Assembly (NCBI GenBank): GCA_964536865.1
Contig: CAZHYN010000001.1
Coordinates: forward strand, 60,001 to 92,000
Source: an uncultured Planctomycetia bacterium
Lineage (GTDB): Bacteria; Omnitrophota; Gorgyraeia; Duberdicusellales; 4484-171
Direction: 5' to 3'
DNA: 32,000 nt
Positions 3,157-18,938 of this stretch are shown here, piece after piece. A program made the position numbers and the translations under genes. How positions within the stretch are numbered: position 1 is the stretch's first letter; the number at the start of each line of letters is the position of its first letter. A model generated the notes under the pieces. It worked only from the letters and a program-made list of their open reading frames with translations, was not told where the DNA came from and ran no database searches.

Positions 3157-4355
3157 TGGGGAATTTTTTTAAGAGAGCTTCTTTCTTTCTTATCTTAAGT
3201 ATCTTAAGTATAAGTGTGGGGATTTTTGCTTTTTTAGGTTACCAAAGAGTTTCAATAAAGTCAAAGGCCAATACGGGATGTCTTCAGTTAGTTGAGGATT
3301 ACACTAATTTAGTCAAGGAATTAGCGAAGTTTAAGGCTAAGGCAGACTCTTTAGAAGTAGACAATAAGATGCTAGTTGAAGAAATGGATCGTTTGGAGAA
3401 GCAGTTAAAGGAAGTTAAGTCAGCAAAGGAAGAGGTCATTAAACAGCTTCTTGTTTTGAAAAAAGAGTGTTCCAGAAAAGAAAAGGAGTACCATTCTCTT
3501 AGAGAGAGAGTACAGATTTTAGAGAAAGAGAAAAAGAAATTATCTCAGGACAATGTAGCTTTAAATAATGTGGTGAAAAAATTAGAAAGAGACTTAACTC
3601 AGTATAAGAGCAGGTTAGAAGAGTATAAAAAAAAGGTGGCTAAAGAGAGTGAGCTTCCAGAGGATATTAAGGAACTTAAGAGTGTGCTAGAAGAAAAGAG
3701 AAGAAAGTTTTTCCAAGGATATACGGAGCTACAGAAGAGGGCACTTACTTTAGAAAAAGAAAATCAGCGGCTTACTAACCTTCTTAAGAAAACCCAGGAA
3801 GAGCTCGCTAAATTGGAGAAAGAAAACAAAGAGATTAATTCTTCCTTAAAGAGGCAAAAAGTCTTACTGGCTGAGATAGAAACTGATAGGGATTTTTACA
3901 AAATAGAGGGAGAAAAATCTAGAATAGAACTTAAAAAGTGTAATCAGACCCTTTTTCAACTCCAAAATAAATACAGTGCTGTTTTAAGAGAAAATCAGGA
4001 TCTTAAAGCAAAAATTGAGGTTATGCCCCGTAAGCTTATGGAGCTATCTCAATTAAATAAAGAACTTCTTAAGGAGAAAGCACGCCTCCACTATAACTTA
4101 GGGGTTTTTTACACCCAAAAAGGAGAGTACAAAAAAGCAATTAAAGAATTTCAAGAAGTTTTAAAGGTAGACCCTAACGATGCCGATACGCATTATAATT
4201 TAGGAGTAATATACTCTGAGTATGAGGTAGATAATGAAAAAGCAATAGACCATTTCAGAAAGTACTTAGGGTTAGCTCCTCAAGATATCTACGCTGACAA
4301 GGTAAGAGAATATCTTGTCTCTCAAGAAGTGGTTAAGGGGGATAAAGCTAAATGA
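3156..4355 (+). CDS. Membrane-anchored long coiled-coil protein with C-terminal TPR repeats (partner of secretin 1; MshN/pilotin-like role is possible)
   Basis: N-terminal TM (FFLILSILSISVGIFAFLGY), then about 260 aa of K/E/L heptad-like sequence. C-terminal TPRs (LHYNLGVFYTQKGEYKKAIKEFQEVLKVDPNDADTHYNLGVIY...). TAATG overlap with the upstream gene and ATGA overlap with the downstream gene. Confidence 0.7.
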   Translation: MGNFFKRASFFLILSILSISVGIFAFLGYQRVSIKSKANTGCLQLVEDYTNLVKELAKFKAKADSLEVDNKMLVEEMDRLEKQLKEVKSAKEEVIKQLLVLKKECSRKEKEYHSLRERVQILEKEKKKLSQDNVALNNVVKKLERDLTQYKSRLEEYKKKVAKESELPEDIKELKSVLEEKRRKFFQGYTELQKRALTLEKENQRLTNLLKKTQEELAKLEKENKEINSSLKRQKVLLAEIETDRDFYKIEGEKSRIELKKCNQTLFQLQNKYSAVLRENQDLKAKIEVMPRKLMELSQLNKELLKEKARLHYNLGVFYTQKGEYKKAIKEFQEVLKVDPNDADTHYNLGVIYSEYEVDNEKAIDHFRKYLGLAPQDIYADKVREYLVSQEVVKGDKAK

Positions 4356-6109
4356 GAAAAGTTATTATCTCTTTTATAATTTTATCGATTTTAATAGTCT
4401 ATCCAGGGTTTCCTTTTTCCTCCAGAGAGGAAAATGATAAATTATCTAAAAGAATTTCTCTAAATTTCCAAAATATTGATATTCTAGAAGCATTAAAGTA
4501 TATTGCTATAAAAGGAGGGATAAATATTATTCCTACCAGAAAAGTTTCAGGGAGGGTAACTCTTAAGGTAGATAACGCTCCTATAAAAGATATTTTTGAT
4601 ATTATGCTCCGCTCCAATAATTTAGCCTATGATAAGAAAGGGAGTATCTACAATGTGATGACTGAAGAAGAGTATAAAGCCCTCTATGGTAAAAGTTTTT
4701 CTGATACTAGGAAAGTGAAAGTATTCCATCTTACTTACGCTATACCAGAGCAGATTATGAAACTCTGTGAGAATATGAAAAGTGAGATTGGAAAGATATT
4801 TTTGGATTCTGAATCGGGTAGTTTAGTAGTAATTGATACTCCTCAGAATATAGAAGAGATAAGCAAAGCTATAGAAGATATAGAGAGCAAAAAAACGGTG
4901 ATTAAAGTATTTGATTTAAAGTACGCTAATGCTAAAGTTATAGCCGATAAGCTTAAGGAGCAAATTACTAAAAAAGGCATAGGATTTGTTCAAGCAGATG
5001 AAGCTACCAGTCAAGTAGTTGTACGAACCCTGCCAGAGAGGATGGAAGAAGTTGAAAAGATAGTTGAGGAGCTGGATAAGAAGACAAAAGAAGTGTTAAT
5101 AGATGCAAAAATCGTCAAAATTACCTTCTCTCGAGAGCTAACCCGAGGAATAGAGTGGGAAGGGCTTTTTGATGTAGCAAGAAAGTACGGTCTTACTTAT
5201 ATTGGTTCCTACCCTTTTAGTTTCGTAAGTCATACCACTACAGGCAGTTGGCGTTCACGAAAGCAGGTCTGGCAGGATACCGGATACGTTGGTTCTTACC
5301 CTTTCAGTGGTACAGCTTTTAATTATTCTAATAGCGGTAAAGTAGTAGGGGTTGAAAAGCTTCATGTAGGAGTGATAGGAAAGCATGATGTTGATGCTCT
5401 ATTTAAGTATCTCAACACTTTAGGGGAGACAAAAATTGTAGCTAATCCTAAACTAGCGGTAGTAAACAATCAGGAAGCACGCATTCACATTGGAGAAAAA
5501 CAAGCCTATATTACAAATACCACTACTCAGACAGCAAGTACCACTACGGTAGCGGAGGAAGTTACCTTTGTAGATACAGGAATTCAACTTTCCGTCACTC
5601 CAACCATAAATGAAGAGGGTTTTGTTACTATAAAGTTGAAACCGGAAATAAGCAGTGTAGCTTCTTATTTAGTTACTGCCTCCAATAATAAGATTCCCAT
5701 AATCACCACCTCCACCGCAGAAACAACAGTAATTGTAAAAAATGCCACCACCATTATTATTGGGGGCCTAAAAGAAGAGAAGGAGGAGAAAAGTTCCAAG
5801 GAAGTTCCTGTGTTAAGTAAGATTCCTATGATAGGAGCCTTTTTTTCCTCAAAAAATAAAACCAAAACTCGCTCAGAACTTCTTATCTTGGTCACTCCCC
5901 ATATAATTAAAGGGGATGAGCTTACTACTGGATATCAGAGAGATTTTGGGCATCGTCTGGATAAAGAGGATCAACCTTACGCTTCCTTCTCTCCCCAAAA
6001 AATAGAATTTGAGTGCAAACCTTATCAATCTTATCCTCGCTTAGATGAAAAGGAGTCTTTTAAATTAAAGCCAGCAAGGGTTTCTTATGAAGAAGATCCC
6101 AAAGGTTGA
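4352..6109 (+). CDS. Secretin (GspD/PilQ/MshL family), paralog 2
   Basis: Same domain layout as 1417..3156, with long identical peptide blocks (SGRVTLKVDN.PIKDIFD.MLRSNNLAYDKKG.IYNVMTEEEYKALYGK.FSD; WRSRKQVWQDTGYVGSYPFSGT). Secretin core: IVANPKLAVVNNQEARIHIGEKQAY ... KIPIITTSTAETTVIVKNATTIIIGGL ... EVPVLSKIPMIGAFF ... RSELLILVTPHII. The C-terminal tail is divergent. Confidence 0.85.
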   Translation: MRKVIISFIILSILIVYPGFPFSSREENDKLSKRISLNFQNIDILEALKYIAIKGGINIIPTRKVSGRVTLKVDNAPIKDIFDIMLRSNNLAYDKKGSIYNVMTEEEYKALYGKSFSDTRKVKVFHLTYAIPEQIMKLCENMKSEIGKIFLDSESGSLVVIDTPQNIEEISKAIEDIESKKTVIKVFDLKYANAKVIADKLKEQITKKGIGFVQADEATSQVVVRTLPERMEEVEKIVEELDKKTKEVLIDAKIVKITFSRELTRGIEWEGLFDVARKYGLTYIGSYPFSFVSHTTTGSWRSRKQVWQDTGYVGSYPFSGTAFNYSNSGKVVGVEKLHVGVIGKHDVDALFKYLNTLGETKIVANPKLAVVNNQEARIHIGEKQAYITNTTTQTASTTTVAEEVTFVDTGIQLSVTPTINEEGFVTIKLKPEISSVASYLVTASNNKIPIITTSTAETTVIVKNATTIIIGGLKEEKEEKSSKEVPVLSKIPMIGAFFSSKNKTKTRSELLILVTPHIIKGDELTTGYQRDFGHRLDKEDQPYASFSPQKIEFECKPYQSYPRLDEKESFKLKPARVSYEEDPKG

Positions 6110-7064
6110 GAAAGTTGACCTAAATAAGATATCTTTATCTTTGGTACTTTTTATTTCTTTTCTCTACTTTCCCTACGTTTATACCCAAGAGAAGAGTGTT
6201 TCTTTAAAGGAGGAATATCGGAAACTAAAGGAGGCATATGATCAGGTAGTTAAAGACAGAGATAATCTTTTATTTCAGGCAAAAAATCTCCTGAAGTATA
6301 AAAAGAAGGTTAGGGAGCTGGAGAAAGAGCTCCAAGATTTACTCAAAGAGAAAGAGAAGTTTGATTTAGAGATTAAAAAAAGGGAAGACTATATTAAAGA
6401 GCTTAAGAAGAAAATTAAGGAGCTTACCCAAGAAAATACTCAGCAGTTGGAGCAAATCGCGGCTTTAAAAAATTATATTGAAAAGATGGAGGTTGAATAT
6501 AAAATAATTAATGAGACAAGGAAGAAAATTAAGGAGTTAAAGGACGAAAAAAGAAAGTTAAAAGGTGAGATAAGGAAATTAACTGCTAAGATAAAGAAGC
6601 TAGAGGACGAAAAGATCGATTTAAAAGCAGAGACTTTGGTATATAAGAGGCAATTCTACGAAATAAGGAGAAAGTATGAGGAGGCATTAGCTAAGAATAG
6701 AAGATTGGAAAAAAAATTAGCTGAGGTTCCTAAAAAGTTTGCTGAGATTGCTAGAGAAAATAAAGCTCTTATAAAAGAAACTGCGTTGATGCATTATAAC
6801 TTAGGAGTTTTTTATACCCAACATAAGGAGTATAAGCGAGCAATTGCTGAATTTGAAAAAGCAATTGAGCTTAATCCTGACGACCCTTATGCTCATTTTA
6901 ATCTTGGTTATATTTATGCTGAGTATCTCCTAAATCGTCCCAAGGCTATAGAACATTTCAGGCATTACCTCCGGTTGGCAGATAAGAACGATAAAGATGT
7001 TGATTGGGTAAAAAAATATATTCTCACTTGGCAGGCTTGGGAAGGAAAGACCCCTCTTAAGTGA
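6087..7064 (+). CDS. Membrane-anchored coiled-coil + TPR protein (paralog of 3156..4355; partner of secretin 2)
   Basis: N-terminal hydrophobic segment (ISLSLVLFISFLYFPYVY), about 200 aa of coiled-coil-like sequence, then a TPR block (MHYNLGVFYTQHKEYKRAIAEFEKAIELNPDDPYAHFNLGYIY...AIEHFRHYL) colinear with the C-terminus of 3156..4355. Confidence 0.7.
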   Translation: MKKIPKVEKVDLNKISLSLVLFISFLYFPYVYTQEKSVSLKEEYRKLKEAYDQVVKDRDNLLFQAKNLLKYKKKVRELEKELQDLLKEKEKFDLEIKKREDYIKELKKKIKELTQENTQQLEQIAALKNYIEKMEVEYKIINETRKKIKELKDEKRKLKGEIRKLTAKIKKLEDEKIDLKAETLVYKRQFYEIRRKYEEALAKNRRLEKKLAEVPKKFAEIARENKALIKETALMHYNLGVFYTQHKEYKRAIAEFEKAIELNPDDPYAHFNLGYIYAEYLLNRPKAIEHFRHYLRLADKNDKDVDWVKKYILTWQAWEGKTPLK

Positions 7065-7079
7065 AAGAAAGGAGGATTT

Positions 7080-7658
7080 ATGAGAAGAACTATTTTTATT
7101 TTAATTAGTATTATACTTACTCTTTCTCTTATGGATAATATAGAGGCTTCCTCTGGGAGAGTTCCAAGGGAGGAAAAAGAAGGTGCTGGTCCTCCTCAAG
7201 TATCCAGAGAAACTGCCCCCTCCAAAAAAGAAGCAGTTAGATCTCTTTCTAAAGAAAGACAAAAGAAACTAGAGGCAAAGCGTCTTCAGAAAGAGAAGGA
7301 GCTTTTACAAAAGAAGAAAAAAGCATTAAATAACACTGAATGGGATATAGAAATTGTTCCTATAGGTAGAAAAGGTAGAAAGACCAAAGACACCTTAATT
7401 TTTAAAGATATGAAAGTTTTTTCTAAGAATCTAAAAAATAAAAAATTCTCCCCTACTAACTACTCCTTACATCTTAATCAGGATGGAACTTTAGTCTGGG
7501 AAACTATGCAGACAAATCAGGATGGAAAGATTGTGTTCTGGCGAGGAGAGGTTACCCCAGATATGAGGTTTATGAGAGGGATAATTACTTTTCCTGATGA
7601 GGAGAAAAATAAAGATTTTAGTTTTAAGAGTACAGCTAAAAGAATTTTGGCTCCTTAA
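7080..7658 (+). CDS. Secreted protein of unknown function (signal peptide, charged linker, beta-rich C-terminal domain)
   Basis: Strong SD (aaaggagg) 5-6 nt upstream of the ATG. Signal-peptide-like N-terminus MRRTIFILISIILTLSLMDNIEA. I recognise no family motif. Confidence 0.6.
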   Translation: MRRTIFILISIILTLSLMDNIEASSGRVPREEKEGAGPPQVSRETAPSKKEAVRSLSKERQKKLEAKRLQKEKELLQKKKKALNNTEWDIEIVPIGRKGRKTKDTLIFKDMKVFSKNLKNKKFSPTNYSLHLNQDGTLVWETMQTNQDGKIVFWRGEVTPDMRFMRGIITFPDEEKNKDFSFKSTAKRILAP

Positions 7659-7678
7659 AATAACGAGGGAGGTGATTT

Positions 7679-8494
7679 ATTTATACTGAATATTGGGGCC
7701 TAACCTGTAAGCCATTTGAAAATGTAGCTGATCCTAACTTTTTCTATTGTTCTTCCACTCATCGAGAGGCTTTAGCAAGGATGATTTATGCGGTAAGAGA
7801 GAGAAAGTTAGGATTTCTTCTATTGGGCAGATATGGTTTAGGCAAGACTTTTTTGAGCAAGGCCTTAGAGAAAGAGTGTTCCGATAGTAACTATAGGTTT
7901 GTATCTATCTCCAATCCTCGACTTACTCCTTTAGAACTAGTTAAAGAAATCAGCTATCAGCTGGGAGTAGTTCCAGTAGATCAAAGTTGGACTAAGGTTG
8001 ATTATCTTCATAAGATAAAAGAGACTTTGGAGAAAAATTACCAGGAAGGTTTCCATACTGTCATTATAATAGATGAAATGCAAAGTATTGAAAGTAACGA
8101 AGTACTTGAAGAAATAAGGCTATTTTTCAATTTGCAGAAAGAGGTTATCTTTTTTACTTTAATCCTTTTGGCCCAATTATCTTTTAAAGAAAATTTAGAG
8201 AAGTTTCCTCACTTCAAACAAAGGATACCTATAAGATATGAACTGTCTCCTTTGGATGAAGGAGAAACAAAAAAGTATATAGAGTTCCGCTTAAAAAAAG
8301 CAGGTGCAGCTAAAGAGATTTTCTCTTCCAAGGCATGTAAGCAGATTTATGCTCTAAGTAAAGGAGTTCCTCGCTTGATAAATAATATTTGTGACTTAGC
8401 TCTTTTAGCAGGGTACTTAGATAGTTTGGAAGTAATCAAAGAAGATACTATCCTTCAAATAGCTCAGGATCTGGGGGAGACACCAAATGATTGA
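7679..8494 (+). CDS. ExeA/GspA/MshM-like AAA+ secretion ATPase, copy 2 (proposed ATT start)
   Basis: Walker A GRYGLGKTF, Walker B VIIIDEMQ, KGVPRLIN motif. The first ATG (7781) truncates the family-typical N-terminus. The frame is open from 7676 and encodes YTEYWGLTCKPFENVADPNFFYCSSTHREALARM. The only start-like codon is ATT 7679, which sits 6 nt after a near-perfect SD GGGAGGTGA (7667-7675). Confidence 0.75.
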   Translation: MYTEYWGLTCKPFENVADPNFFYCSSTHREALARMIYAVRERKLGFLLLGRYGLGKTFLSKALEKECSDSNYRFVSISNPRLTPLELVKEISYQLGVVPVDQSWTKVDYLHKIKETLEKNYQEGFHTVIIIDEMQSIESNEVLEEIRLFFNLQKEVIFFTLILLAQLSFKENLEKFPHFKQRIPIRYELSPLDEGETKKYIEFRLKKAGAAKEIFSSKACKQIYALSKGVPRLINNICDLALLAGYLDSLEVIKEDTILQIAQDLGETPND

Positions 8495-9503
8495 TTTTTC
8501 AAAAATTTTTGGAAACGGTAAAGATAAAGAGAAACCTTCATCCCCCATTCATTTTGCTAAGGAACCACCCAAAGAGAAACTGCCTTCTAAGAAGGAAGCA
8601 AAGAAAATTTCCGAGAAAGAAAAAATGTTAGGTGGTATAGATGTGAAGCTTCTATATAAGGAATCTCTTGTCTTAGCAGATAAAATTTTCAGCTCTTCCC
8701 AACCTATTTTACCGGAAGATGTAAAAGAAGTTAAGGAAATAGTTGAGAAAATTGTAGATTGTATAACTAGAGAGGGCGAACGGTTGGTTGAAATCACCTT
8801 TAATAAGCTCCCCCAGGAGTACCACTTTATTTCTCTGAATATGGTTAACGTGTGTGTTCTATCTCTATATATAGGAATAGCCTTAGGTCTTTCTCGAGAT
8901 AAGCTTATAGATCTAGGAATAGCTGCTCTCCTTCATGATTTAGGGATGAAAAAATATCAAAGTATAATTGATCAACCTCGAAAATTAACTCCCCAAGAGT
9001 ATAAGGAAATAGAAAATCATCCTATTGTAACTGCCCAGATGCTTTCTCATCTTAAAGAGTTAAGCAGTAAAATCTTAGAGAGTATAAGTCAAGAACATGA
9101 ACGTATGGATGGCTCGGGTTATCCTAAAAATTTAAAGAAAGAAGAAATTGATGAGTTTGCACAAATAATGGCAGTAGTAGATGTTTATGAAGCTTTAACT
9201 CACTCTCGTCCCTATCGCGAGGCTTATAAACCCTCAGAGGCAATTAAAATTATGTTAGAGATGAAAGAAAGATTCAGCTATACAGTGATGAATGTTTTTT
9301 TAGAAAAAATAGGAATTTATCCTAAAGGAAGTTATGTAGAGCTTAACACAAGAGAGATAGCCCAGATAGTACGACAGAATCCTAAACTTCCTTGTTATCC
9401 GGTAATCAAAATAATTTACAATAGTAAAGGAGAAAAATTAGATGAGCCTAAAGAGGTAGATTTGAGCACTAACCCGACAGTTTATATTAGGAAGTGTCTA
9501 TAA
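8487..9503 (+). CDS. HD-GYP domain protein (putative c-di-GMP phosphodiesterase or sensor)
   Basis: AALLHDLGM (HD motif) and EHERMDGSGYPKNL (HHE..DG.GYP motif with the first His replaced by Glu). No receiver domain is seen. 8-nt overlap with the upstream gene. Confidence 0.85.
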   Translation: MIDFSKIFGNGKDKEKPSSPIHFAKEPPKEKLPSKKEAKKISEKEKMLGGIDVKLLYKESLVLADKIFSSSQPILPEDVKEVKEIVEKIVDCITREGERLVEITFNKLPQEYHFISLNMVNVCVLSLYIGIALGLSRDKLIDLGIAALLHDLGMKKYQSIIDQPRKLTPQEYKEIENHPIVTAQMLSHLKELSSKILESISQEHERMDGSGYPKNLKKEEIDEFAQIMAVVDVYEALTHSRPYREAYKPSEAIKIMLEMKERFSYTVMNVFLEKIGIYPKGSYVELNTREIAQIVRQNPKLPCYPVIKIIYNSKGEKLDEPKEVDLSTNPTVYIRKCL

Positions 9504-9522: not shown

Positions 9523-10875
9523 ATGAAGAAATTTTCAGTATATATTTTAACAGCATTAATACTTTTTTCTCTTTATAATTTTGTGAAACTAAGGGTAGAG
9601 TTTTCTAATGAGAAAAAAAAAGGAGAGATGCTTAGTCAAAGATTAAAAGAAGCCGAAAGAGAGTCTCAACACCTAAAAGAGCTAATAAATAGTAGGGAGA
9701 AGGAGATAGATAAATTAAAGAGAGAATTAGAGGAACTTAAGTTTCCTCAGCGTCTAAAGAACGCCCTTGCTCAAGCGCAGGACCTTATAAGAAAACTGAA
9801 CGATGATTTAAGTAACTTAAGAAGAGAAAAAACTCGCTTGGAGAAGGAAAATTTTTCCCTTAAAGAGAGAATAGAGCTTAGTAACAAACGAATTACTCAA
9901 TTACTTGCTCAACTGGAGGAGGTAAGAGACAAATTTGAAGTTAGCAAGAAAGAAAGAGGTAGAGTTATAGCAAGAGAAATTACCAGATTGAAGAAAGCGT
10001 TAGAGGAGAAAGACAAGGAAACAGAGGATTTAAGAAAGGATTTAGAGAGGTATAAAGAGAAAGCTTCAGATTTAGAAAGAAAGGCCAAGTTCTTAAGAGC
10101 TCAACTTACTAAAGTTAAAAGAGGATTTTCTAAAGATACTTCAGATAGAAAGAGAGTGAAGCAATTAATGGCTTCTTTGGAGAGGGTAAATAGAGAAAAA
10201 GATACACTTTCTGCGGAGGTTAGACAACTTAGGTTAGAGAGAGAACAGCTACAGAGAAAAATTGATGAATTGTCCAAACTTAATCAAGATTTACAGCATC
10301 AGGTGAGCCAACTTAAAAAGCAAATAGAGGAAAAAGAAGAGCAGATAGTTAGTCTAGAGAAGAAAATTAAGAAAGGTGTCTCTTCAGTTGATACAGAGAC
10401 AAGACTCCTAAGAGCTAGACTAGCTCTCCAGAAAGAGGAATTTCAAAAAGTAAATACTCTCTATCAAGAACTAAAAGAGCAACTGAAAGATTTAGCAAAG
10501 ATTATCTCTGATAAAGAACAAGAGATAGAAAGTAAAGATAAAGAGATAGCTAGATTAAATCAGGAAATTTCTTATTTAAAACTTAGATTAGTAGATTTAG
10601 AAGATAGGTTGAAGGAGACACAGAGTATTCAGGACGAAGTTTTAAGAAGGTTTTCTGAAGTAGTAGAATTAAATTCTGCTCTTCAAGAAAAGTTAGGGAC
10701 GATTTCTACTTTTTTAGGTAAGCCCAGGGTTAAGAAGAAAACAACCTTAAGAGAAGAATTAACTTTACCTGAAGAACCAGAAGTAGTAAGTTCTTCGGAA
10801 GGGGGGGAGAAGGAGCGAGTAGAAAGTTTAAAGAAGCAGGTAGAAGTTATCCTTCATGAAAGTTCACAGGAATAG
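9523..10875 (+). CDS. Membrane-anchored long coiled-coil protein (third of this kind, no TPR)
   Basis: N-terminal TM (VYILTALILFSLYNFV), then about 400 aa of E/K/L/R-rich heptad-like sequence. Tightly spaced in the operon. Confidence 0.65.
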   Translation: MKKFSVYILTALILFSLYNFVKLRVEFSNEKKKGEMLSQRLKEAERESQHLKELINSREKEIDKLKRELEELKFPQRLKNALAQAQDLIRKLNDDLSNLRREKTRLEKENFSLKERIELSNKRITQLLAQLEEVRDKFEVSKKERGRVIAREITRLKKALEEKDKETEDLRKDLERYKEKASDLERKAKFLRAQLTKVKRGFSKDTSDRKRVKQLMASLERVNREKDTLSAEVRQLRLEREQLQRKIDELSKLNQDLQHQVSQLKKQIEEKEEQIVSLEKKIKKGVSSVDTETRLLRARLALQKEEFQKVNTLYQELKEQLKDLAKIISDKEQEIESKDKEIARLNQEISYLKLRLVDLEDRLKETQSIQDEVLRRFSEVVELNSALQEKLGTISTFLGKPRVKKKTTLREELTLPEEPEVVSSSEGGEKERVESLKKQVEVILHESSQE

Positions 10876-11731
10876 TTTTCTCTGGATAAAAACTTTTTTA
10901 AAACTACCACTAAAGATTATCTTTCTTTTAAGTGTAGGGGGAATTTTACTTTTTTCCTATGCCAGCTATTCTAAAACTCCTCAAGAAGAGGCTAAGGAGC
11001 ATTATCGCTTAGGGGAGATTTATTACCAGCATGGTCTTTATAAGGAAGCAGAAAGAGAATTTAAGAAAGCCTTACAGTTGCTCAAAAGAGAAGTTCCTTT
11101 GGAAGAGGAAGGGTCATTTCAAAAAGAGGGGAAACCTCCCTCTCCTTCTGAGGAATCTCAGTATATTATCTCCCCGGGCGATGTTCTTTATATAAGTGTG
11201 TGGGAGAATCCTGATTTGACTGGGGAGGTTATCGTACGCCCCGATGGGATGATTTCTTTCCCTCTTATAGATGAGGTAAAAGCAGCTGGGTTAACTATAT
11301 CTGAGTTAGATAAAGAGATGACTGAAATGCTTAAGGAATATATTCGTTTCCCTGACGTTTCTATCTCTCTAAGAGCAATGGGGGGTCAAAGGGTAATTAT
11401 TCTCGGAGAAGTAAAAAGTCCTGGAGTTTACTCTTTAAAAGGGAGAAAAACTGTTTTAGAGGCAGTAGCTTTGGCAGGAGGATTTACTAAGGACGCAGTT
11501 TTAAACAGTGTAATAGTAATAAAAGGAGGGCTCAAAAACCCCCATCCTAAACGGGTAGATTTAGCCAGCGCTCTTAAAAAAGGAAAGATGAAAGAAGATA
11601 TTGTGTTAGACTCTCAAGATATAGTCTTTGTTCCAAAAAAGTTTATTGCTGATTTAAATTATTTTTTAACTCAGATTTTGGGTCCTATATCCCGAGGAGT
11701 TTATACTGCCAAGGAAATTCAACGCTGGTAA
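10856..11731 (+). CDS. Short outer-membrane polysaccharide export (OPX, Wza-like) protein with an N-terminal TM/TPR extension
   Basis: Poly_export (PES) motif YIISPGDVLYISVWENPDLTGEVIVRPDGMISFPLIDEVKAAGLTISEL, then one SLBB-like domain (VIILGEVKSPGVYSLKGRKTVLEAVALAGGF). One TPR-like repeat at the N-terminus (HYRLGEIYYQHGLYKEAEREFKKALQL). No lipobox and no long C-terminal amphipathic helix. Confidence 0.8.
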   Translation: MKVHRNSFLWIKTFLKLPLKIIFLLSVGGILLFSYASYSKTPQEEAKEHYRLGEIYYQHGLYKEAEREFKKALQLLKREVPLEEEGSFQKEGKPPSPSEESQYIISPGDVLYISVWENPDLTGEVIVRPDGMISFPLIDEVKAAGLTISELDKEMTEMLKEYIRFPDVSISLRAMGGQRVIILGEVKSPGVYSLKGRKTVLEAVALAGGFTKDAVLNSVIVIKGGLKNPHPKRVDLASALKKGKMKEDIVLDSQDIVFVPKKFIADLNYFLTQILGPISRGVYTAKEIQRW

Positions 11732-11764: not shown

Positions 11765-12061
11765 GTGATGAGTTTTTGGCAGAAAAAATATAAAAAGAAT
11801 CCCAATATGGTATTTAGAAAGATTGCTGATGAGGTAATTTTAGTGCCCATAAGAAATAAAGTAGGTGATTTACAGAGTATCTATACCTTGAATGAAGTTG
11901 GTGCACGTATATGGAAGTTAATTAATGGAAAGAGAGAATTAGCCAAGATTAAGGAGATTCTTTTGGAGGAGTTCAGCGTCGATGTTCCTCGAGTTGAAGA
12001 AGATTTAAAAGCATTTGTACAGAAATTAGAAAGAATAGGAGCAGTAGAGGAAGTTAAGTAG
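11765..12061 (+). CDS. PqqD-family protein (RiPP recognition element)
   Basis: 98 aa. VFRKIADEVILVP...IYTLNEVGARIWKLINGKRELAKIKEILLEEFSVD...DLKAFVQKLERIGAV matches the PqqD/RRE pattern. The start may be GTG 11765 or ATG 11768. Confidence 0.8.
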   Translation: MMSFWQKKYKKNPNMVFRKIADEVILVPIRNKVGDLQSIYTLNEVGARIWKLINGKRELAKIKEILLEEFSVDVPRVEEDLKAFVQKLERIGAVEEVK

Positions 12062-12067
12062 CATAAT

Positions 12068-13189
12068 ATGGAGTGTATTTATATACCTAAGATTTCTTAT
12101 AGGGAGTTTAGTGAATCAATTCACAGGAAAGTAGGAGAAAAACGAATTCCCCTTAATGGATCTATAGAGGTTACTTTGCGTTGTAACTTAAGATGTCTAC
12201 ATTGTTACTGTAGTTACAACTCTCAAAAAAAAGAATTAAGTTATAAAGATTTCTGTCGTATTTTTGACGAGATTGCTGATATGGGGTGTTTGTGGCTGCT
12301 TATTACAGGAGGAGAGCCACTCTTAAGAGAGGATTTTTTAAAAATTTATACTTACGCTAAAAAGAAAGGATTTATTATAACACTTTTTACTAATGCAACC
12401 TTACTTACCCCTTCCATTGTGGATTGTTTAAAAGATTATCCTCCTTTTGCGGTGGAGGTTACTTTGTATGGAATAACTAAATCTACTTATGAGAAAATTA
12501 CTCGTATTCCTGGTTCATTTAACCGATGTATAGAAGGTATTCATCTTCTTTTAGAAAGAAAAATTCCTCTTAGGTTAAAAACAGTGGTGATGAATTTAAA
12601 TAAACACGAGCTTTTCAAGATAAAGAGATTTGCCGAAAATTTGGGAGTAGAGTTTAGATTTGACCCTCTTATTAACCCTAAATTAGATGGCTCTAAAGAA
12701 CCTTGCAAGTTGAGAATTTCGCCACAAGAAGTTATTGAGCTTGATTTAATGGATAAAAAAAGAAAAGAAGCATGGGAGGAGTTCTGTAAAAAATTTCCTT
12801 CGCCTATAAACTCAGAATGGCTTTACAGTTGTAGTGCAGGAAGAACTTCTTTCCACATAGATCCCTATGGAAATTTAAGTATTTGTATTATTGAAAGGTT
12901 CCATACCTACAATCTTTTAAAGGGCACATTTAAGGAAGGATGGGAAACTTTTATCCCTGAAAAAATACTCAGTCTTAAAAAAGATAATAGATACGAATGC
13001 AATCAGTGCCAGTTAAGAGACTTATGCGATCGTTGTCCTGGGTGGTCACAGCTTGAAGCAGGTAACCCTCAGGAAGTGGTAGATTATCTTTGTCAGATAG
13101 CTCATCTAAGAGCCAAAGTGTTTGGTTTTGGCAGAGAAAGAAAGGAGGGGGAGAAAGATGAAAAAGAGAGAAAAAAAATTCTACTCTAA
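12068..13189 (+). CDS. Radical SAM enzyme with a C-terminal SPASM domain (peptide-modifying maturase type)
   Basis: CxxxCxxC cluster CNLRCLHC near the N-terminus and a GGEPLL motif. The C-terminal Cys-rich SPASM pattern is CSAGRTSFHIDPYGNLSIC ... CNQCQLRDLCDRCPGW ... C. Confidence 0.85.
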   Translation: MECIYIPKISYREFSESIHRKVGEKRIPLNGSIEVTLRCNLRCLHCYCSYNSQKKELSYKDFCRIFDEIADMGCLWLLITGGEPLLREDFLKIYTYAKKKGFIITLFTNATLLTPSIVDCLKDYPPFAVEVTLYGITKSTYEKITRIPGSFNRCIEGIHLLLERKIPLRLKTVVMNLNKHELFKIKRFAENLGVEFRFDPLINPKLDGSKEPCKLRISPQEVIELDLMDKKRKEAWEEFCKKFPSPINSEWLYSCSAGRTSFHIDPYGNLSICIIERFHTYNLLKGTFKEGWETFIPEKILSLKKDNRYECNQCQLRDLCDRCPGWSQLEAGNPQEVVDYLCQIAHLRAKVFGFGRERKEGEKDEKERKKILL

Positions 13190-13331
13190 ACCTCAGATAA
13201 AAGAAGTTAATTTAGTGCCTCAAGAAGCAGTCCTTCTTGGTTGTAAAACTACAGCTGATCCCAGTGGGAGAACAGTTGGGCGGAATAATTGTGGTAACAG
13301 AGATAACTTTTGTCAAACCGCGGTAAGTTAG
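13158..13331 (+). CDS. Candidate RiPP precursor peptide (57 aa): MKKREKKFYSKPQIKEVNLVPQEAVLLGCKTTADPSGRTVGRNNCGNRDNFCQTAVS
   Basis: An internal ATG of track ORF 13122..13331 is preceded by GGAGG (13144-13148) at 9-nt spacing. It overlaps the last 32 nt of the rSAM gene. Basic N-terminus, a YSKPQI (YxxPx[LI]) leader-like motif, three Cys in the C-terminal half and a C-terminal Ser. Confidence 0.5.
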   Translation: MKKREKKFYSKPQIKEVNLVPQEAVLLGCKTTADPSGRTVGRNNCGNRDNFCQTAVS

Positions 13332-13360: not shown

Positions 13361-14233
13361 ATGCTAAAGGTAGAAATAGGGGGAGTGGCTATTTCTCTTT
13401 CTTTTGTAGATGGTAAAGGTTGGATACCTCAAGTTAGTAAAGCAATGCATTCTTTTCTTACTAGGAGAAAAAGGTTCGATTTAGCTCTTAAGGTTCACTG
13501 CGGTTTTCTTCCCCATCTGAATGTAAAGAGAGTTGTGTTTAATTCGGGAGGAAACTGGACTCTTTTTAAGGATAGAAATAATAGATTAGTTTTTTCTCTT
13601 ACTTCCCCTGCTACCGGTCCTCATCCTTATGCTTTGGCAGTTGTTGATTCTCAATTTAAAGTAGGGAATTTATACCTTAGAGAGCCAAATTACTTTCTTT
13701 CTAAAAAAGCTATTGTGAATCCTTTAGAGTACCCCTTAGATGAGGTTTTAGTAGTGCATCTTCTCTCAAGAAATAGAGGAATACTTCTTCATGGATGCGG
13801 AATTAAATACAAAGGAGAGGGGCTACTTTTTTTAGGAACTTCGGGAAGAGGAAAAAGCACCATTGCCAATCTTTGGAAGGAAGAGAAAGAAGTCGCCATT
13901 TTAAGTGACGATAGAATTGTTGTCCGCAAGAAAGGCTCCAATTTCTGGATATATGGTACTCCCTGGCACGGAGATGCAAAATTATGTTCTCCTCAGAAAG
14001 TAGTTCTAAAGAAGATATTTTTTCTTAAGCACGGCAAGAAAAATTCGCTTAAAAAGATGAAGTTAAGTGAAATAATTTCTCAGTTAGTTGTCTGTTCTTT
14101 CCCTCCTTTTTGGGATAAGAAAGGTATGAAGTTTATCTTAAGTTTTTGTTCTGATTTAGCAAAAGTTCCTTCTTATGAGCTAAATTTCCTACCTAACAGG
14201 AGTGTTTTGGATCTTATCAAACGTAAGGTGTGA
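13361..14233 (+). CDS. HPr-kinase-like (HprK-related) serine kinase family protein
   Basis: LHGCGIKYKGEGLLFLGTSGRGKSTIANLW ... LSDDRIVV ... GTPWHGD resembles the HprK C-terminal P-loop core (lHG..v...g.GvLi.G.SG.GKS ... DD.v). Confidence 0.75.
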   Translation: MLKVEIGGVAISLSFVDGKGWIPQVSKAMHSFLTRRKRFDLALKVHCGFLPHLNVKRVVFNSGGNWTLFKDRNNRLVFSLTSPATGPHPYALAVVDSQFKVGNLYLREPNYFLSKKAIVNPLEYPLDEVLVVHLLSRNRGILLHGCGIKYKGEGLLFLGTSGRGKSTIANLWKEEKEVAILSDDRIVVRKKGSNFWIYGTPWHGDAKLCSPQKVVLKKIFFLKHGKKNSLKKMKLSEIISQLVVCSFPPFWDKKGMKFILSFCSDLAKVPSYELNFLPNRSVLDLIKRKV

Positions 14234-14730
14234 AGTGCCAAAATTCTGAATTTTTAAAGTTAAGTAAGGATATATTAGAGAAAGGGTTTTCTCTTCGCTT
14301 TCAGGTAAGGGGGGCAAGTATGTACCCTTTTATCAAAAGCGGTGATACCGTGGAAATAGAGCCAAAGAATATCTCCAAAATAAACTATGCGGATATTATC
14401 CTTTACGCCAATTACGAAGGAAAAATTGTAATCCATCGAGTAGTAAAAAAAATCAAGAAGAATAATGAAACTATCCTAGCAACTAGAGGAGACTTTCTGC
14501 CACCTTCCTTAAGAGAGTTTGTTCCTTCAGAGAAAGTATTAGGTAAAGTTGTAGTTATTAGAAAGGCAAATAGGATGTTTAGAATAGATAGGGGATTTTT
14601 AAGGCTGTTGAATATTGTATATACCAAACTTTTACCTATTATTAGGTGGGGACATAGTTTTGGTGCCAAACTGCTAAAGTTTACCCCGAGCCACAGAAAG
14701 TTACCTGTGACATTACATCGGGGTGGATAA
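14230..14730 (+). CDS. S26-family signal-peptidase-like protease (archaeal/ER type, Ser-His)
   Basis: RGASMYPFIKSGDTVEI (Ser box), KIVIHRVV (His box), TRGDF (GDN-like box). GTGA start/stop overlap with the kinase gene. Hydrophobic C-terminal segment. Confidence 0.65.
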   Translation: MKCQNSEFLKLSKDILEKGFSLRFQVRGASMYPFIKSGDTVEIEPKNISKINYADIILYANYEGKIVIHRVVKKIKKNNETILATRGDFLPPSLREFVPSEKVLGKVVVIRKANRMFRIDRGFLRLLNIVYTKLLPIIRWGHSFGAKLLKFTPSHRKLPVTLHRGG

Positions 14731-14793
14731 ATGTCTATCCAAATACCTCCAAGCATAATTTCAAAGCAATATGCGATTGTTATATCGGGGTGG
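14717..14793 (+). repeat. 10-bp G-rich direct repeat ATCGGGGTGG (14717-14726 and 14784-14793)
   Basis: Read directly. Both copies are translated as (H/Y)-R-G-G in the reading frame of their own gene. Confidence 0.9.
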
Positions 14794-15925
14794 CCGGGGT
14801 TTACTAAAGCAAATTAAAAATATTATGAGGGGAGGGGATAACTTTATTACTGTATTGAGCTGTTCTATCTGGAATAAGGAGAAAAGTGGAGAGATAGAGG
14901 AAGTAATAAAGAATAATTTAGATTGGGATTATGTATTAAGGAAATCCCGTAAAGAGGGGGTTTCTTCTTTGATTTATTATTGCTTAAAGAAATTCGAGTT
15001 ACAAAAATATTTGCCTTTTAAGACCTTAAAAACCTTAGAGGAAGCCTATTATAAAAATTCTCTAAGGAATATTATTATGATTAGTGAAACAAAAAAGGTA
15101 TTAGAATCTTTTAAAAAAGAAGGTATAGAATCAATTATTCTTAAAGGAGTTTTCTTGGCAGAGAAAATTTATAGGAATATTGCTTTGAGAGAGATGACAG
15201 ATGTTGATATTCTAATAAGGAGAAAAAATGTCAAGAAAGCAAATAGAATTTTAAATTCTCTAGGATACCCAACTCCGAAATACTATGAAGATCTTTTGAA
15301 AATATCTTCTTCCCTTAATACTTTAATGTATAAAGGTAATATACGAGTCCATCTTCACTGGCATCTTATAAATTCAACTTGGCCTTTAAACTTTTTAATA
15401 GAAAAAATTAGTATAGAAAGAATCTTTGAATACGCCAAACCTATAAAGATTGATACTTTAGATACTCTAACTTTGTCCAATGAGCATCTTTTAATTTACC
15501 TTTGCTATCATCTTTTTAATCACTCTTTTGACAGGCTGATTCTTCTGGTAGATATTCTCGGCTTGTTAAATTCTTATAGTATTGACTGGAATTTTGTTAT
15601 AGAAGAGGCAGAACGTTTTAAGCTTTCATTTATTCTCTATTATGTTTTATCTTTTATATCTCAAAAAAAGGAAGAAAAGGTTCCTTACTTAGAAAGATTG
15701 AAACCATCTAAATCTTATCTCAAAAAACTTCCTCCTTCTTCTTTTACTTCTTATTTTATATACCTTCTTCTTCAAAAGGGATTTAAAAAGAAGATAAAGT
15801 TCCTTATAAATACCATTTTCCCTCCTCCCTGTGTAGTAGCTCATAGTTTCTCCATTTCTCCAAAGGAAGTAACCAGAGCTCATTATTTTTTTCGTCTTAT
15901 TAAACCTTTTCTTAAATTCTTCTAA
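14771..15925 (+). CDS. Nucleotidyltransferase-fold protein of the PF14907 (NTP_transf_5) type
   Basis: LDWDYVLRKSRKEGVSSLIYYCL at the N-terminus, then ILKGVFLAEKIY...MTDVDILIRRKNVKKANRILNSLGY and HLHWHL. This layout is typical of the uncharacterised nucleotidyltransferases found in lasso/RiPP clusters. The start is uncertain (ATG 14771 or 14826) and there is no clear SD. Confidence 0.6.
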   Translation: MRLLYRGGRGLLKQIKNIMRGGDNFITVLSCSIWNKEKSGEIEEVIKNNLDWDYVLRKSRKEGVSSLIYYCLKKFELQKYLPFKTLKTLEEAYYKNSLRNIIMISETKKVLESFKKEGIESIILKGVFLAEKIYRNIALREMTDVDILIRRKNVKKANRILNSLGYPTPKYYEDLLKISSSLNTLMYKGNIRVHLHWHLINSTWPLNFLIEKISIERIFEYAKPIKIDTLDTLTLSNEHLLIYLCYHLFNHSFDRLILLVDILGLLNSYSIDWNFVIEEAERFKLSFILYYVLSFISQKKEEKVPYLERLKPSKSYLKKLPPSSFTSYFIYLLLQKGFKKKIKFLINTIFPPPCVVAHSFSISPKEVTRAHYFFRLIKPFLKFF

Positions 15926-15948: not shown

Positions 15949-16761
15949 TTAGGAGTAAAGGAGACTGCCGTGTTTTTTAGCTTGCCTTAGAGCTAATTTA
16001 AAGGAAAGGAGAGCTATGGGAAGGAGGATAAGAAAGAAGAGAGTGAGGCAGGCTATTTCAACTTTTACTTCTTTTAGAGAAGCCCCCATAGCTATACTCT
16101 TCCTCATACCTCTTAAAGCATAGGTTATAGGTAGAAGGTAGGAAATTTTTTGTAACACTTGCGGTAATACCTTAATAGGAAAGTAAACTCCTCCTAAAAA
16201 TCTTGAAATCCCATTTAATACCCAATTAATAGGGTTTCCTCTCTTAAACACAAGAATGAAGCTTGCTGATAGAACTCCTAAGGCACTGAAAGAGAGAATG
16301 GTTAAGAGTAAAATTACTAGGGAGGAGATGAGATTTATCTTACTTAGATTGAATCCAAAAATAAGCCACCCTAAAAAAAGATACACCATTACCCTTAAAG
16401 ATACAAAGAAAAAGTTCCATACCGCTCCTAAAAGTAAAATAGTACCAATACTAGTAGGAGACATAAGAAGGATTTCTAATGTTCCTTCGGACTGTTCATA
16501 GTGGATGACTTGGCTGAAACTATTTAGGGCAGCGGAGAGATATCCACTGAAGGCAAGTCCAATTAAGACAAAGGAAAAGTAGTCCCCTCCAAATTCTTCT
16601 AAGTATTTAGAAGCTCCCTCTCCAAATAGCTTGGAGACGAAAAAGAAAGTAGCAACCGAGGCAAAAATAGAGATAAAATCTAAGAGGAAAGACAAACGGT
16701 AGCTTGAATTAATAAGAAAATCTCTCTTTAAAAAAGCAAGTAGCTTCCTAAGAAATATCAT
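15949..16761 (-). CDS. ABC-2 type transporter permease
   Basis: 270 aa with about 6 hydrophobic helices. 14-nt overlap with the upstream ATPase gene on the minus strand. Confidence 0.8.
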   Translation of the reverse strand: MIFLRKLLAFLKRDFLINSSYRLSFLLDFISIFASVATFFFVSKLFGEGASKYLEEFGGDYFSFVLIGLAFSGYLSAALNSFSQVIHYEQSEGTLEILLMSPTSIGTILLLGAVWNFFFVSLRVMVYLFLGWLIFGFNLSKINLISSLVILLLTILSFSALGVLSASFILVFKRGNPINWVLNGISRFLGGVYFPIKVLPQVLQKISYLLPITYALRGMRKSIAMGASLKEVKVEIACLTLFFLILLPIALLSFKLALRQAKKHGSLLYS

Positions 16762-17464
16762 TCTTTATTATTTCTCCATATAAGTCTTTTAAAGAAGTTT
16801 GAATCTCCTTTATATTTTTAATTAGGAGAATTTCTCCCCTATTCATAATAGCAATTCTGTCAGCGACAGTTTCTGCTTCTTCCAAAAAATGGGTAGCAAA
16901 GAGGATTGTTTTTTTGAACTCTTTCGCTAATCTCTGCATAAGCTTTCTAAATTCTTTAGCCGTTAAGGGATCCAAACTTTTGGTAGGCTCATCCATTATA
17001 ATTATTTCCTTTTCCAGAATAAGAGTTCTTAAAAGGGAAAGGCGATGTTTGGTTCCTGTAGAATATTGCCAGAAAGGTTTGTCTAAGTCCTCTACTTCTA
17101 AAATTTGTGAATAATTCTTTATTCTCTCTCTAATTTGATGGGAAGAAAGATTATAAATTGTAGCAAAGAATTCCAAATTCTGCTTTGCAGTAAGTTGAGG
17201 ATAAAATCCATAAGTTTCCCCAGAAAAATAAGCAACCCCCCCTTTAACCTTTATCATTCCTCTTTCAGGAAGAATTAATCCACAAATTATTTTTAGAAGA
17301 GTAGTTTTACCTGCACCGTTAGGACCTAATAGAGCAAGCGCCTCCCCTCTATTTACTTTAAGATGTACTGAATTTAGAGCATAGATCCTGCGTGGGAGAA
17401 GAAAAAAATGGAAGATATCTCTCTTTATAAGAAAAGACTTGCTTAGCCCCTCTACTTCAATCAT
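16748..17464 (-). CDS. ABC transporter ATP-binding protein (DrrA/CcmA-like, ABC-2 subfamily)
   Basis: Walker A GPNGAGKTT, signature-like YSTGTKHRLSL, Walker B IIIMDEPT, H-loop FATH. It lacks the Wzt-type motifs (NGaGKST, DE.laVGD). Confidence 0.9.
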   Translation of the reverse strand: MIEVEGLSKSFLIKRDIFHFFLLPRRIYALNSVHLKVNRGEALALLGPNGAGKTTLLKIICGLILPERGMIKVKGGVAYFSGETYGFYPQLTAKQNLEFFATIYNLSSHQIRERIKNYSQILEVEDLDKPFWQYSTGTKHRLSLLRTLILEKEIIIMDEPTKSLDPLTAKEFRKLMQRLAKEFKKTILFATHFLEEAETVADRIAIMNRGEILLIKNIKEIQTSLKDLYGEIIKNDIS

Positions 17465-17540: not shown

Positions 17541-18938
17541 ATGAAAAAAAGAGTTTTACACCTTTCCTTATTACTAATCTCTATATCTGTAGTAGTCTTT
17601 CTACTAAGTTCTCCTTGCTTTCCCCAAGAAGAAAAAAGGTTCCAAATTGTAGGAGAGATTTTTGGTGTACCAGTACCTATTGGAAATTACTACTTTGCTA
17701 AAAGAGTAGTTTTAACTTTCAATGCCAAGTGGCGTCCTACACCTAAAGATGAGGAGGAATTGGAAGATTTGGTCTGGCAGGAACTTATTCTTTCTTATGA
17801 GGCTTATCGTCGGGGGATAGAAGCTAGTAGCAAGGAGATAGATGAGCATATAGATAAGATACTAAAAGCAGAGAAGGTAAATTTCGATTGGCGGAAAGAA
17901 AAAGAAAAGTTTGAAGAGTGGACAAAAAATAAATTGGGCGTATCTCCTCAGGTATTTAGAAATCAGATAGAACATCTAATAAAGCTAGAGAAGCTCCAGC
18001 AACAAGTAATAGAGAGTATTGAACCTGAAGTTACCGAGGAGGAAGCCTACCAGAAATTTCTCGATGAGTGTAATACTCTTTCTGTAGAGTTAGTACAGTT
18101 TGATGAATTAAAAGAGGCAGAAAAGTTTTATAAGGAAGTTTCAAAACCTCAGGAAGAAGGAGCGTTAGAGAAACTTATTTGGGAAGATCTTCTCCTTTCC
18201 TATGAAGCATTTAAAAGAAAAGTAGAGGTAACTAAAGAAGAAATAGAAAAAAATATTTATAGGTATTTGAGAGGAAGGGAGGTTAGATTTAACTGGAAGA
18301 AAGATGAGAGAAAATTTAAAACGTGGCTTAAAGGTAATTTAGGTTTATCTCAAGAGGAATTCAAGAAATTTATTATTCACTTTGCAAAGATTGATAAATT
18401 GAGGCAGTTAATCTATAGAAAAGAAGCTCCTCCTATTAGTGAGGAGAGATATACATATTTTCTCAGAGAGAAAAGAGATATCGAGAGAGCTTATCAAAGG
18501 TTCTCTAAAGAATTTGGCTTTCCTCAAAATGCAGTATTGATATTTCCTACTTTCCAAGATGCTGAGGTATTTTATAAACGATTTAAGAGAGAAGCTACTC
18601 CTTGGGAAGATAGAAAAAGAAAAAAGCCTGATAGATTTAAAAGGCCGGGTTTCGTAGCTTTAGATTTTCTAATTCATATGTGGGGATTCAAAAGAGAAGA
18701 TGCTTACAGGATGATAGAAAGAAAGGTTGGAGATATTTACCCTCCCGCCCCTATTTATAAAGGATATGGAGTATTTAAAATTCTTCGTGTTCGTAAAGCT
18801 AATCCTTCTGATTTTAGCAAGCGAAAAAAATACTATTTTGATAAGCTTAAGAGGATCAAAAAATATCAAAGATTTAAAGAATGGCTAAATTCTCTGAAGG
18901 AGGAAGCTAATATAAAAGTCTATAGTGATAAATTTTAA
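17541..18938 (+). CDS. Secreted SurA/PrsA-N-terminal-like chaperone repeat protein (tentative)
   Basis: Signal peptide. Two internal ~83-aa repeats (LEDLVWQELILSYEAYRRGIEASSKEIDEHI... and LEKLIWEDLLLSYEAFKRKVEVTKEEIEKNI...). The C-terminal GYGVFKILRV resembles the parvulin/SurA GyhIikv motif. The assignment is weak. Confidence 0.4.
   Translation: MKKRVLHLSLLLISISVVVFLLSSPCFPQEEKRFQIVGEIFGVPVPIGNYYFAKRVVLTFNAKWRPTPKDEEELEDLVWQELILSYEAYRRGIEASSKEIDEHIDKILKAEKVNFDWRKEKEKFEEWTKNKLGVSPQVFRNQIEHLIKLEKLQQQVIESIEPEVTEEEAYQKFLDECNTLSVELVQFDELKEAEKFYKEVSKPQEEGALEKLIWEDLLLSYEAFKRKVEVTKEEIEKNIYRYLRGREVRFNWKKDERKFKTWLKGNLGLSQEEFKKFIIHFAKIDKLRQLIYRKEAPPISEERYTYFLREKRDIERAYQRFSKEFGFPQNAVLIFPTFQDAEVFYKRFKREATPWEDRKRKKPDRFKRPGFVALDFLIHMWGFKREDAYRMIERKVGDIYPPAPIYKGYGVFKILRVRKANPSDFSKRKKYYFDKLKRIKKYQRFKEWLNSLKEEANIKVYSDKF

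Follow-up and report, generated by a model that had tools for sequence, protein, structure and literature searches.

A putative modified-peptide precursor encoded beside radical SAM and HprK-like kinase genes in an Omnitrophota exopolysaccharide locus

HprK-like kinases phosphorylate serine residues in paeninodin-type lasso peptides and in the linear polyphosphorylated peptides, or LPPs (Popov et al., Nat Commun 2026; PMC13381572). The subject of the present analysis is a small open reading frame (ORF) at 13158..13331, located between the genes for a radical S-adenosylmethionine (SAM) enzyme and an HprK-like kinase, in 32,000 nucleotides of DNA from an uncultured Planctomycetia bacterium (placed by GTDB in the Omnitrophota). 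This stretch, hereafter called the window, comprises positions 60,001 to 92,000 of contig CAZHYN010000001.1 (assembly GCA_964536865.1), and the features of the peptide cluster lie on its forward (+) strand unless otherwise stated. An original prediction, made from the letters of the window, took the ORF to encode the precursor of a modified peptide, with a lasso-like leader motif. In the reading favored here, to which we assign a probability of about 0.62, it encodes the precursor of a peptide synthesized ribosomally and modified after translation (a RiPP) that would be cut, cross-linked and phosphorylated by enzymes encoded in the same cluster.

The LPPs are produced from lppA-K-B-S-D-N clusters that reside inside capsular polysaccharide loci of Bacillota (PMC13381572). 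The core of the system is made up of LppS, a peptidase of the SipW type; LppB, a discrete recognition protein; LppK, an HprK-like kinase; LppN, an NTP transferase; and an exporter resembling MsbA. The leader follows the consensus YxxPxVLxHQxIxFETxxS, and LppK polyphosphorylates Ser3 of the core. The domain names given in the supplement are PqqD, NTP_transf_5 (the Pfam family of LppN), TIGR02228 and TIGR02203. Both LPPs and paeninodins are stated to be restricted to Bacillota (PMC13381572). For pseudomycoidin, PsmK is the kinase that phosphorylates the C-terminal serine, and PsmN, described as an uncharacterized NTP transferase, is required to add a hexose to the phosphate.

How does the window compare with these systems? 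PqqD, NTP_transf_5 and TIGR02228, three of the domains named for LPP, are all present, in the form of a discrete PqqD protein, a peptidase with a Ser/His/Asp triad and an NTP_transf_5 protein, together with an HprK-like kinase (a weak match here). The leader carries YxxPx[VIL] with a glutamate 14 residues after the tyrosine, the setting is a polysaccharide locus, and there is no macrolactam cyclase, all of which resembles LPP. Unlike LPP, the window adds a radical SAM enzyme with a SPASM domain, of which there is no mention in the LPP paper or in the available part of its supplement. The rest of the LPP leader consensus (the HQ, F, T and S) is absent. The core has three invariant cysteines and a conserved terminal serine in place of the Ser3 site, with no serine conserved at the position equivalent to Ser3. 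Export would involve an ABC-2 transporter instead of an MsbA-like one, and, where LPP has Bacillota as hosts, the present family is hosted by Omnitrophota, Desulfobacterota, Aminicenantes and others. Since the leader consensus, the type of exporter and the lack of a radical SAM enzyme all fail to match, the cluster is not a strict member of the LPP group.

With paeninodin and pseudomycoidin the window shares a [Y/W]xxP leader paired with a B1-type PqqD protein, an HprK-like kinase and an NTP transferase; it differs in having neither cyclase nor B2 protease, hence no lasso fold, in its serine-type leader peptidase, in the Cys-rich core and in the presence of a radical SAM enzyme. The sacti- and ranthipeptides, as exemplified by SkfA and its maturase SkfB, offer a third likeness in their SPASM maturase, PqqD-type recognition and Cys-bearing core. 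The window enzyme, however, is only 16-21% identical to structurally solved maturases and reaches no curated maturase cut-off; the thioethers proposed for it are a prediction. To our knowledge, no kinase, NTP_transf_5 protein or SipW-type peptidase is known from the sacti- and ranthipeptides. The system most likely works like an LPP or a paeninodin-type phosphopeptide with radical SAM cross-linking added.

Two further systems, SynChlorMet and GeoRSP, exist as curated but uncharacterized NCBIfam entries. The PqqD, radical SAM and kinase proteins of the window match the ScmD, ScmE/ScmF and ScmC models, respectively, and within NCBIfam the window PqqD protein scores highest against the PqqD model of GeoRSP. 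All of these matches, however, fall far below the cut-offs: 17 bits versus 125 for ScmC, 27 versus 100 for ScmD, 71-73 versus 400 for ScmE/ScmF, and, for GeoRSP, 35 versus 100 for PqqD and 65 versus 400 for the radical SAM protein. Five distant homologues of the radical SAM enzyme behave likewise, and neither they nor the window enzyme reached any curated NCBIfam cut-off. Literature searches found no publication on SynChlorMet or GeoRSP, and searches for HprK with radical SAM and RiPP, or for PF14907, returned no description of the present variant.

The precursor gene and its family

The ORF at 13158..13331 encodes 57 amino acids, MKKREKKFYSKPQIKEVNLVPQEAVLLGCKTTADPSGRTVGRNNCGNRDNFCQTAVS, followed by a stop codon directly after Ser57. 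It begins with an ATG at 13158, preceded at a distance of 9 nt by a Shine-Dalgarno-like GGAGG (13144..13148), and its start lies within the radical SAM gene, overlapping it by 32 nt up to that gene's end at 13189; conservation of the radical SAM protein itself ends at about residue 352, ahead of the overlapped tail. Residues 1-28 (13158..13241), which would make up the leader at its greatest extent, are basic and devoid of cysteine, and include the motif YSKPQI at residues 9-14 (13182..13199), an instance of [Y/W]xxPx[LIV]. The cysteines follow at residues 29 (13242..13244, with a lysine immediately after), 45 (13290..13292) and 52 (13311..13313), and the last residue is Ser57 (13326..13328). 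In all these particulars, from the coordinates and the ribosome-binding site to the overlap, the basic Cys-free half and the terminal serine, the gene is as originally described. Neither a terminator nor a stable hairpin was found 3' of it (fold z-score -0.27).

The radical SAM protein has 373 residues in the window and 380 in two contigs that are 96-98% identical to it (L082 and L083). This difference is an indel (window 13140-13189); it falls in the purine run where the peptide gene also has its ribosome-binding site, GGAGGGGGAGAAAGA versus GGAGGTGGGAAAAA.

That this is a genuine gene under purifying selection follows from its conserved position, its invariant residues and the third-position bias of its substitutions across a wide range of GC content. 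Eighty related metagenome loci (given L numbers) were fetched with an alignment, A1, of 32 radical SAM homologues, and a hidden Markov model (HMM) of the precursor, built from 19 small ORFs, was run on all six frames of each locus. More than 50 of the 80 contain such an ORF beside the radical SAM gene, on the same strand and one per locus, and in about 30 the gap between the radical SAM and kinase genes is occupied by a single ORF, 50-70 codons long and alike in pattern. In the six frames of the window, 13158..13331 is the only match. To align the small ORFs that follow homologous radical SAM genes had been proposed as a check on the original prediction, and it comes out strongly in favor of a modified-peptide precursor: the YxxPxI motif, the cysteines and the terminal serine are all conserved, and Pro12, Cys29, Cys45 and Cys52 are invariant in the 38-sequence precursor alignment (A2). 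The prediction had also allowed that some other conserved small ORF might prove to be the true partner of the enzymes; no competing ORF was seen.

Between the window and its relative L002, the peptides are 67% identical, with 17 synonymous and 19 non-synonymous codon differences distributed 12/11/30 over the three codon positions, and the ratio of non-synonymous to synonymous substitution rates (dN/dS) is about 0.05. Among 22 leaders, from DNA of 35-71% GC, most differences likewise fall at third positions, and the median dN/dS is 0.27 over the 63 pairs in which dS is unsaturated. The same ORF was called independently by gene callers in two near-identical contigs. In near-identical relatives all amino-acid changes lie at residues 35-53, so the leader is constant while the core drifts. 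A conserved leader, a core that varies except at the cysteines and the terminal serine, and a location beside genes for modifying enzymes together make up the pattern generally expected of a RiPP precursor.

How large is the family? A word-index search with the peptide alone returned only two near-identical sequences, and profiles were needed to find more. A profile search of an index of 5.8 billion proteins gave 114 members, nearly all unnamed or labeled "hypothetical protein" and none with a Pfam domain; when 1.84 billion cluster representatives were searched exhaustively with HMMER, 3,862 matched at E≤1e-3, none of them named. The precursors matched no NCBIfam or Pfam model. The family is thus large, spread across many phyla, and, in the sources searched, without a name that informs about it. 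The last residue is Ser or Thr in 99 of the 114 profile members (93 Ser, 6 Thr), in all 139 new top HMMER matches (131 Ser, 8 Thr) and in 55 of 60 sequences of a third set (52 of them Ser). The 114-member set includes 80 peptides with three cysteines and 32 with four, and among the 139 HMMER matches the leader motif starts with Tyr in 111 (Y-type) and with Trp in 28 (W-type).

The rules of the family are most strictly displayed by 190 Y-type sequences with three cysteines, from which the spacing statistics were drawn. The Tyr and Pro of the leader motif are invariant (190/190), and the motif ends in L, I or V in 187. The first cysteine comes exactly 20 residues after the Tyr in all 190, is followed directly by Lys in 170, and is preceded by a Glu 14 residues after the Tyr in 168. 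The first and second cysteines are 13-16 residues apart and the second and third 5-7, and the third stands five residues before the C-terminus, as C-x3-G-S, in 154 of the 190. The fixed distance from the docking motif to the first cysteine suggests that the bound leader measures out the position of that cysteine.

Two departures from the common pattern may be recorded here. In L047 (231-4858) there are about 10 tandem precursor genes of the W-type (WxKPELVVLVRxxPEE...CK...), most with four or five cysteines and all but one ending in Ser. They adjoin two radical SAM genes together with PqqD, S26 and NTP_transf_5 genes, with no kinase match in the 13 kb covered. A separate sub-family (L027, L031, L033, L034 and L035, with P0152, P0157-P0159 and others, one member being annotated from Brevefilum) has no terminal Ser; its leader reads ...KVKLEIKNAILAxC[NH][QS]SP... 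and its core ends ...CYNP....

The neighboring enzymes and a possible maturation pathway

The gene order PqqD, radical SAM, peptide, kinase, peptidase, NTP_transf_5 and an ABC-2 pair in reverse orientation recurs in L002, L005, L006 and L014, as determined by tblastn with the window proteins. The order in which the products would act can be sketched from their homologues. The basic leader would dock through Tyr9-x-x-Pro12-x-Ile14 onto the discrete PqqD-family recognition protein encoded at 11765..12061 (98 aa; Pfam PqqD, 59 bits). In the PDB this protein is best matched by TbiB1, a lasso B1 protein (E 2.9e-7), and by chain 9x8z_B, identified as LppB in the LPP paper (PMC13381572), and crystal structures show LppB and lasso B1 proteins binding a YxxP-type leader motif. 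In the LppB structure, Asp70 hydrogen-bonds the leader Tyr and Phe74 stacks on the leader Pro. The window sequence VEEDLKAF aligns with VEEDIEAF of LppB, and the Tyr-contacting Asp and the Pro-contacting Phe are both kept (positions counted from the alignment). This Asp is invariant among the PqqD homologues of the loci, and it showed no covariation with Y-type versus W-type leaders, being the same in both. The proposal that YSKPQI is the handle for the 11765..12061 protein is thereby supported by homology, and docking of the one on the other is the predicted first step.

The complex of PqqD protein and peptide would then be offered to the radical SAM/SPASM enzyme (12068..13189; 373 aa), by which Cys29, Cys45 and Cys52 would, most likely, be converted into thioether-type cross-links. 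This protein, recognized by Pfam Radical_SAM, contains the invariant CxxxCxxC (Cys39/43/46) and seven C-terminal cysteines (255/273/311/314/320/323/342) that make up a full SPASM set in alignment A1. Its homologues number 4,272 at E<1e-20, with identities of 54-69%, in Omnitrophota, Desulfobacterales, Aminicenantes, WOR-3, Nitrospinae and other hosts; a scan of genome contigs with the single radical SAM protein gave one irrelevant 26% match only. Sacti- and ranthipeptides are usually marked by this combination of three invariant cysteines with a SPASM enzyme and a recognition protein of the discrete kind. The original prediction had cast the cysteines as cross-link donors; their conservation is borne out, and the donor role is putative.

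Several loci have more than one such enzyme. In L009 (6481-8246) the first cluster is followed by a second, more divergent pair of PqqD and radical SAM genes and a second S26 peptidase, and the same second pair is found in L010 (4105-5333). In L042, L048, L054, L055, L058 and L074, two or three radical SAM paralogues surround one kinase.

Offered by the same complex to the HprK-like P-loop kinase (13361..14233; 290 aa), the peptide would most likely be phosphorylated on Ser57, and the NTP_transf_5 (PF14907) protein (14771..15925; 384 aa; Pfam 182 bits) may decorate the phosphate, by analogy to PsmK and PsmN. The kinase gives weak matches to HprK_rel_B, Hpr_kinase_C and ScmC. A 26-sequence profile of it matches the HPr kinase/phosphorylase in PDB at E 1.5e-4, as well as PEP carboxykinase, and His144, GxSGxGK165 and Asp183 are invariant. 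A single-sequence AlphaFold model had a mean confidence (pLDDT) of 38, which is too low for use.

The protein encoded at 14230..14730 (166 aa), for which the original prediction named no role, is probably the leader peptidase. It belongs to the SipW/archaeal type of signal-peptidase-I-like proteins (TIGR02228, 57.4 bits against a cut-off of 51.85), and its Ser30, His69 and Asp88, invariant in 18 homologues, match Ser29, His68 and Asp93 of LppS. It appears to be soluble, having no N-terminal membrane anchor as judged by reading the sequence rather than by topology prediction. LppS is a leader peptidase that depends on LppB and cleaves after Thr-1, with Ser29, His68 and Asp93 as its catalytic residues (PMC13381572). 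In the window peptide there are two candidate sites: cleavage after Ala24 would be homologous in position to LPP, with Tyr at -16 and Glu at -2, and cleavage after Gly28 would suit the signal peptidase I preference at -3 (L/A) and -1 (G/S/A). The finished product would finally be exported, probably by the ABC-2 transporter encoded on the reverse (-) strand at 15949..17464 (permease 15949-16761, ATPase 16748-17464; Pfam ABC2_membrane and ABC_tran), a pair that has the same position and orientation in L002, L006 and L009.

Weighing the readings

Several observations weigh against the pathway just outlined. The AlphaFold model of the radical SAM enzyme (pLDDT 82.6) is closest in fold to SkfB, PqqE, SuiB and anSME, with similar scores, so that thioether formation, carbon-carbon cross-linking, epimerization and Cys oxidation are not separable by fold or by sequence. 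A conserved acceptor residue was sought in the core of the 190 Y-type sequences, and none was seen. The cleavage site is ambiguous between Ala24 and Gly28. On its own sequence the kinase stays below the Pfam and NCBIfam cut-offs, its matches being weak but consistent. LppK acts on core Ser3 and not on a terminal Ser, and for LppN the published heterologous system revealed no detectable activity (PMC13381572). In the sub-family that lacks the terminal Ser, four of the five loci (L031, L033-L035 and L027) keep a P-loop kinase, in which LGEDQ stands in place of LSDDR. Finally, of 29 long loci only 9 have polysaccharide-type neighbors, and most of these are closely related to the window.

These points give some room to two variants of the proposal in which the precursor is real and one of its enzymes does something else. 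The radical SAM enzyme might carry out a chemistry other than the formation of Cys thioethers, such as a carbon-carbon cross-link, an epimerization, an anSME-type Cys oxidation or an MftC-type reaction at the C-terminus, the three cysteines then serving as disulfides, metal ligands or points of recognition. PqqE, SuiB, anSME and EpeE are all among its structural neighbors with scores near that of SkfB, its best full-length peptide-maturase match in NCBIfam is the mycofactocin maturase (105 bits), no conserved acceptor residue is seen, and the fixed C-x3-G-S end would suit a reaction centered on the C-terminus. Yet the combination of cysteines, SPASM enzyme and discrete recognition protein is the one usual for sacti- and ranthipeptides, the thioether-forming SkfB is the closest solved match in both sequence and fold, and many of the hosts are, by their names, anaerobes, in which disulfides would be unlikely; this variant is accordingly considered possible but somewhat unlikely. 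The kinase, for its part, might, like that of LPP, phosphorylate a Ser or Thr inside the peptide, close to where the core begins; the terminal Ser would then be conserved for another reason, for example because the radical SAM enzyme, the NTP_transf_5 protein or the exporter recognizes it. LppK, confined to Ser3, sets a precedent; in the core of the window peptide, Thr31 and Thr32 directly follow Cys29-Lys30; and the sub-family without terminal Ser combines its P-loop kinase with a conserved C-[NH]-[QS]-S-P segment. In the main family, however, no internal Ser or Thr position is conserved while the terminal Ser/Thr is nearly universal, and the HprK-like kinases of paeninodin and pseudomycoidin act on a C-terminal Ser, which makes an internal site quite unlikely. 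Of the original proposal that the terminal Ser is the kinase substrate, the conservation and the precedent stand; LPP and the Ser-less sub-family speak against it, and Ser57 is retained as the most likely target.

The remaining alternatives would change the nature of the gene itself. Could the peptide be a small secreted lipoprotein or signal-peptide-bearing peptide, with L-x-G-C as a lipobox and the S26 protein as an ordinary signal peptidase? The N-terminus is rich in Lys and Arg, and the residues leading up to Cys29 read V-L-L-G-C (L/A at -3 and G/S/A at -1 across the family). But a hydrophobic core region is missing; [Y/W]xxP is invariant; an acidic pair is conserved 6-7 residues before the Cys (Glu in 168/190); the peptidase, read from its sequence, has no N-terminal anchor and has the triad spacing of LppS; and the gene is strictly linked to those of the PqqD and radical SAM proteins. 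This possibility was rejected as very improbable. A true lasso peptide precursor is extremely improbable. The YxxPx[LI] leader, the B1-like PqqD protein and the pairing of an HprK-like kinase with NTP_transf_5 are typical of paeninodin-type clusters, and to this extent the label "lasso-like" is apt for the leader and its recognition protein, a YxxPxL-type leader and a B1-type protein both being present. However, 30 large ORFs of the window searched against Pfam (10 of them also against NCBIfam) include no asparagine-synthase-like cyclase and no transglutaminase-like B2 protease; related loci carry the same gene set when searched with the window proteins; and there is no conserved Asp or Glu at core positions 7-9 counted from either candidate cleavage site. 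A serine peptidase is present in place of the B2 protease, and lasso identity was rejected. That the ORF might be a chance one without a product, as its shortness and its overlap with the upstream gene could suggest, has a practically negligible probability and is already refuted by its conservation in thousands of sequences that span a broad range of GC content, its third-position bias and its invariant residues.

The segment at 13215-13244, and its family counterpart [VLI]-[LA]-x-[GSA]-C-K before the first cysteine, does resemble a lipobox or signal peptidase I site, in a leader that has no hydrophobic core.

The surrounding locus

The cluster lies in what is otherwise an exopolysaccharide locus. 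Directly upstream is a Wza-like polysaccharide export protein (10856..11731; Pfam Poly_export, SLBB), and the rest of the window encodes a Wzz/tyrosine kinase, Wzy, a flippase, glycosyltransferases and methyltransferases, along with duplicated secretins, ExeA-like ATPases, TPR proteins and an HD_5 protein. A Wza homologue adjoins the cluster in L002, L005 and L014 and is found within 6 kb of it in L009, L019, L020, L022, L023 and L054. The peptide cluster probably works together with the surrounding exopolysaccharide locus.

What would such a peptide be for? One can tentatively suppose, as a possibility that is more doubtful than not, that it is the founding member of a large, unrecognized class of modified peptides in which a phosphorylated or phosphoglycosylated C-terminal Ser and radical SAM cross-links are combined in one molecule, and which acts with polysaccharide machinery and not as an antibiotic. 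Such a class would comprise at least 3,800 clusters at 50% identity, mostly in uncultivated anaerobes, and its product might, for example, bear a phospho-sugar and serve as primer, anchor or regulator when exopolysaccharide is assembled or exported. The family itself extends the peptidase, kinase and NTP_transf_5 genes of LPP beyond Bacillota and joins them to radical SAM chemistry. The 20-residue spacing from Tyr to Cys, the three cysteines and the C-x3-G-S end offer handles for work on the function of NTP_transf_5 proteins and on the siting of such clusters in polysaccharide loci.

A few features of the flanking DNA complete the picture. Window positions 141-8494 are occupied by a tandemly duplicated, secretion-type module. 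Its two secretins (1417-3156 and 4352-6109) are 58% identical, and each is followed by a coiled-coil/TPR protein, these two being 44% identical over the TPR end; the ExeA-like AAA ATPases at 141-800 and 7781-8494 are 39% identical. Upstream of the cluster, at 8487-9503, is the HD_5 (HD-GYP-like) protein, homologues of which are located near the cluster in L002, L019, L020, L022 and L023, and this recurring neighbor hints at a signaling link. Downstream, the cluster is flanked by a protein with a SurA-like chaperone domain (17541-18938), whose homologue in L002 (2945-3883) is instead upstream, between the Wza and PqqD genes.

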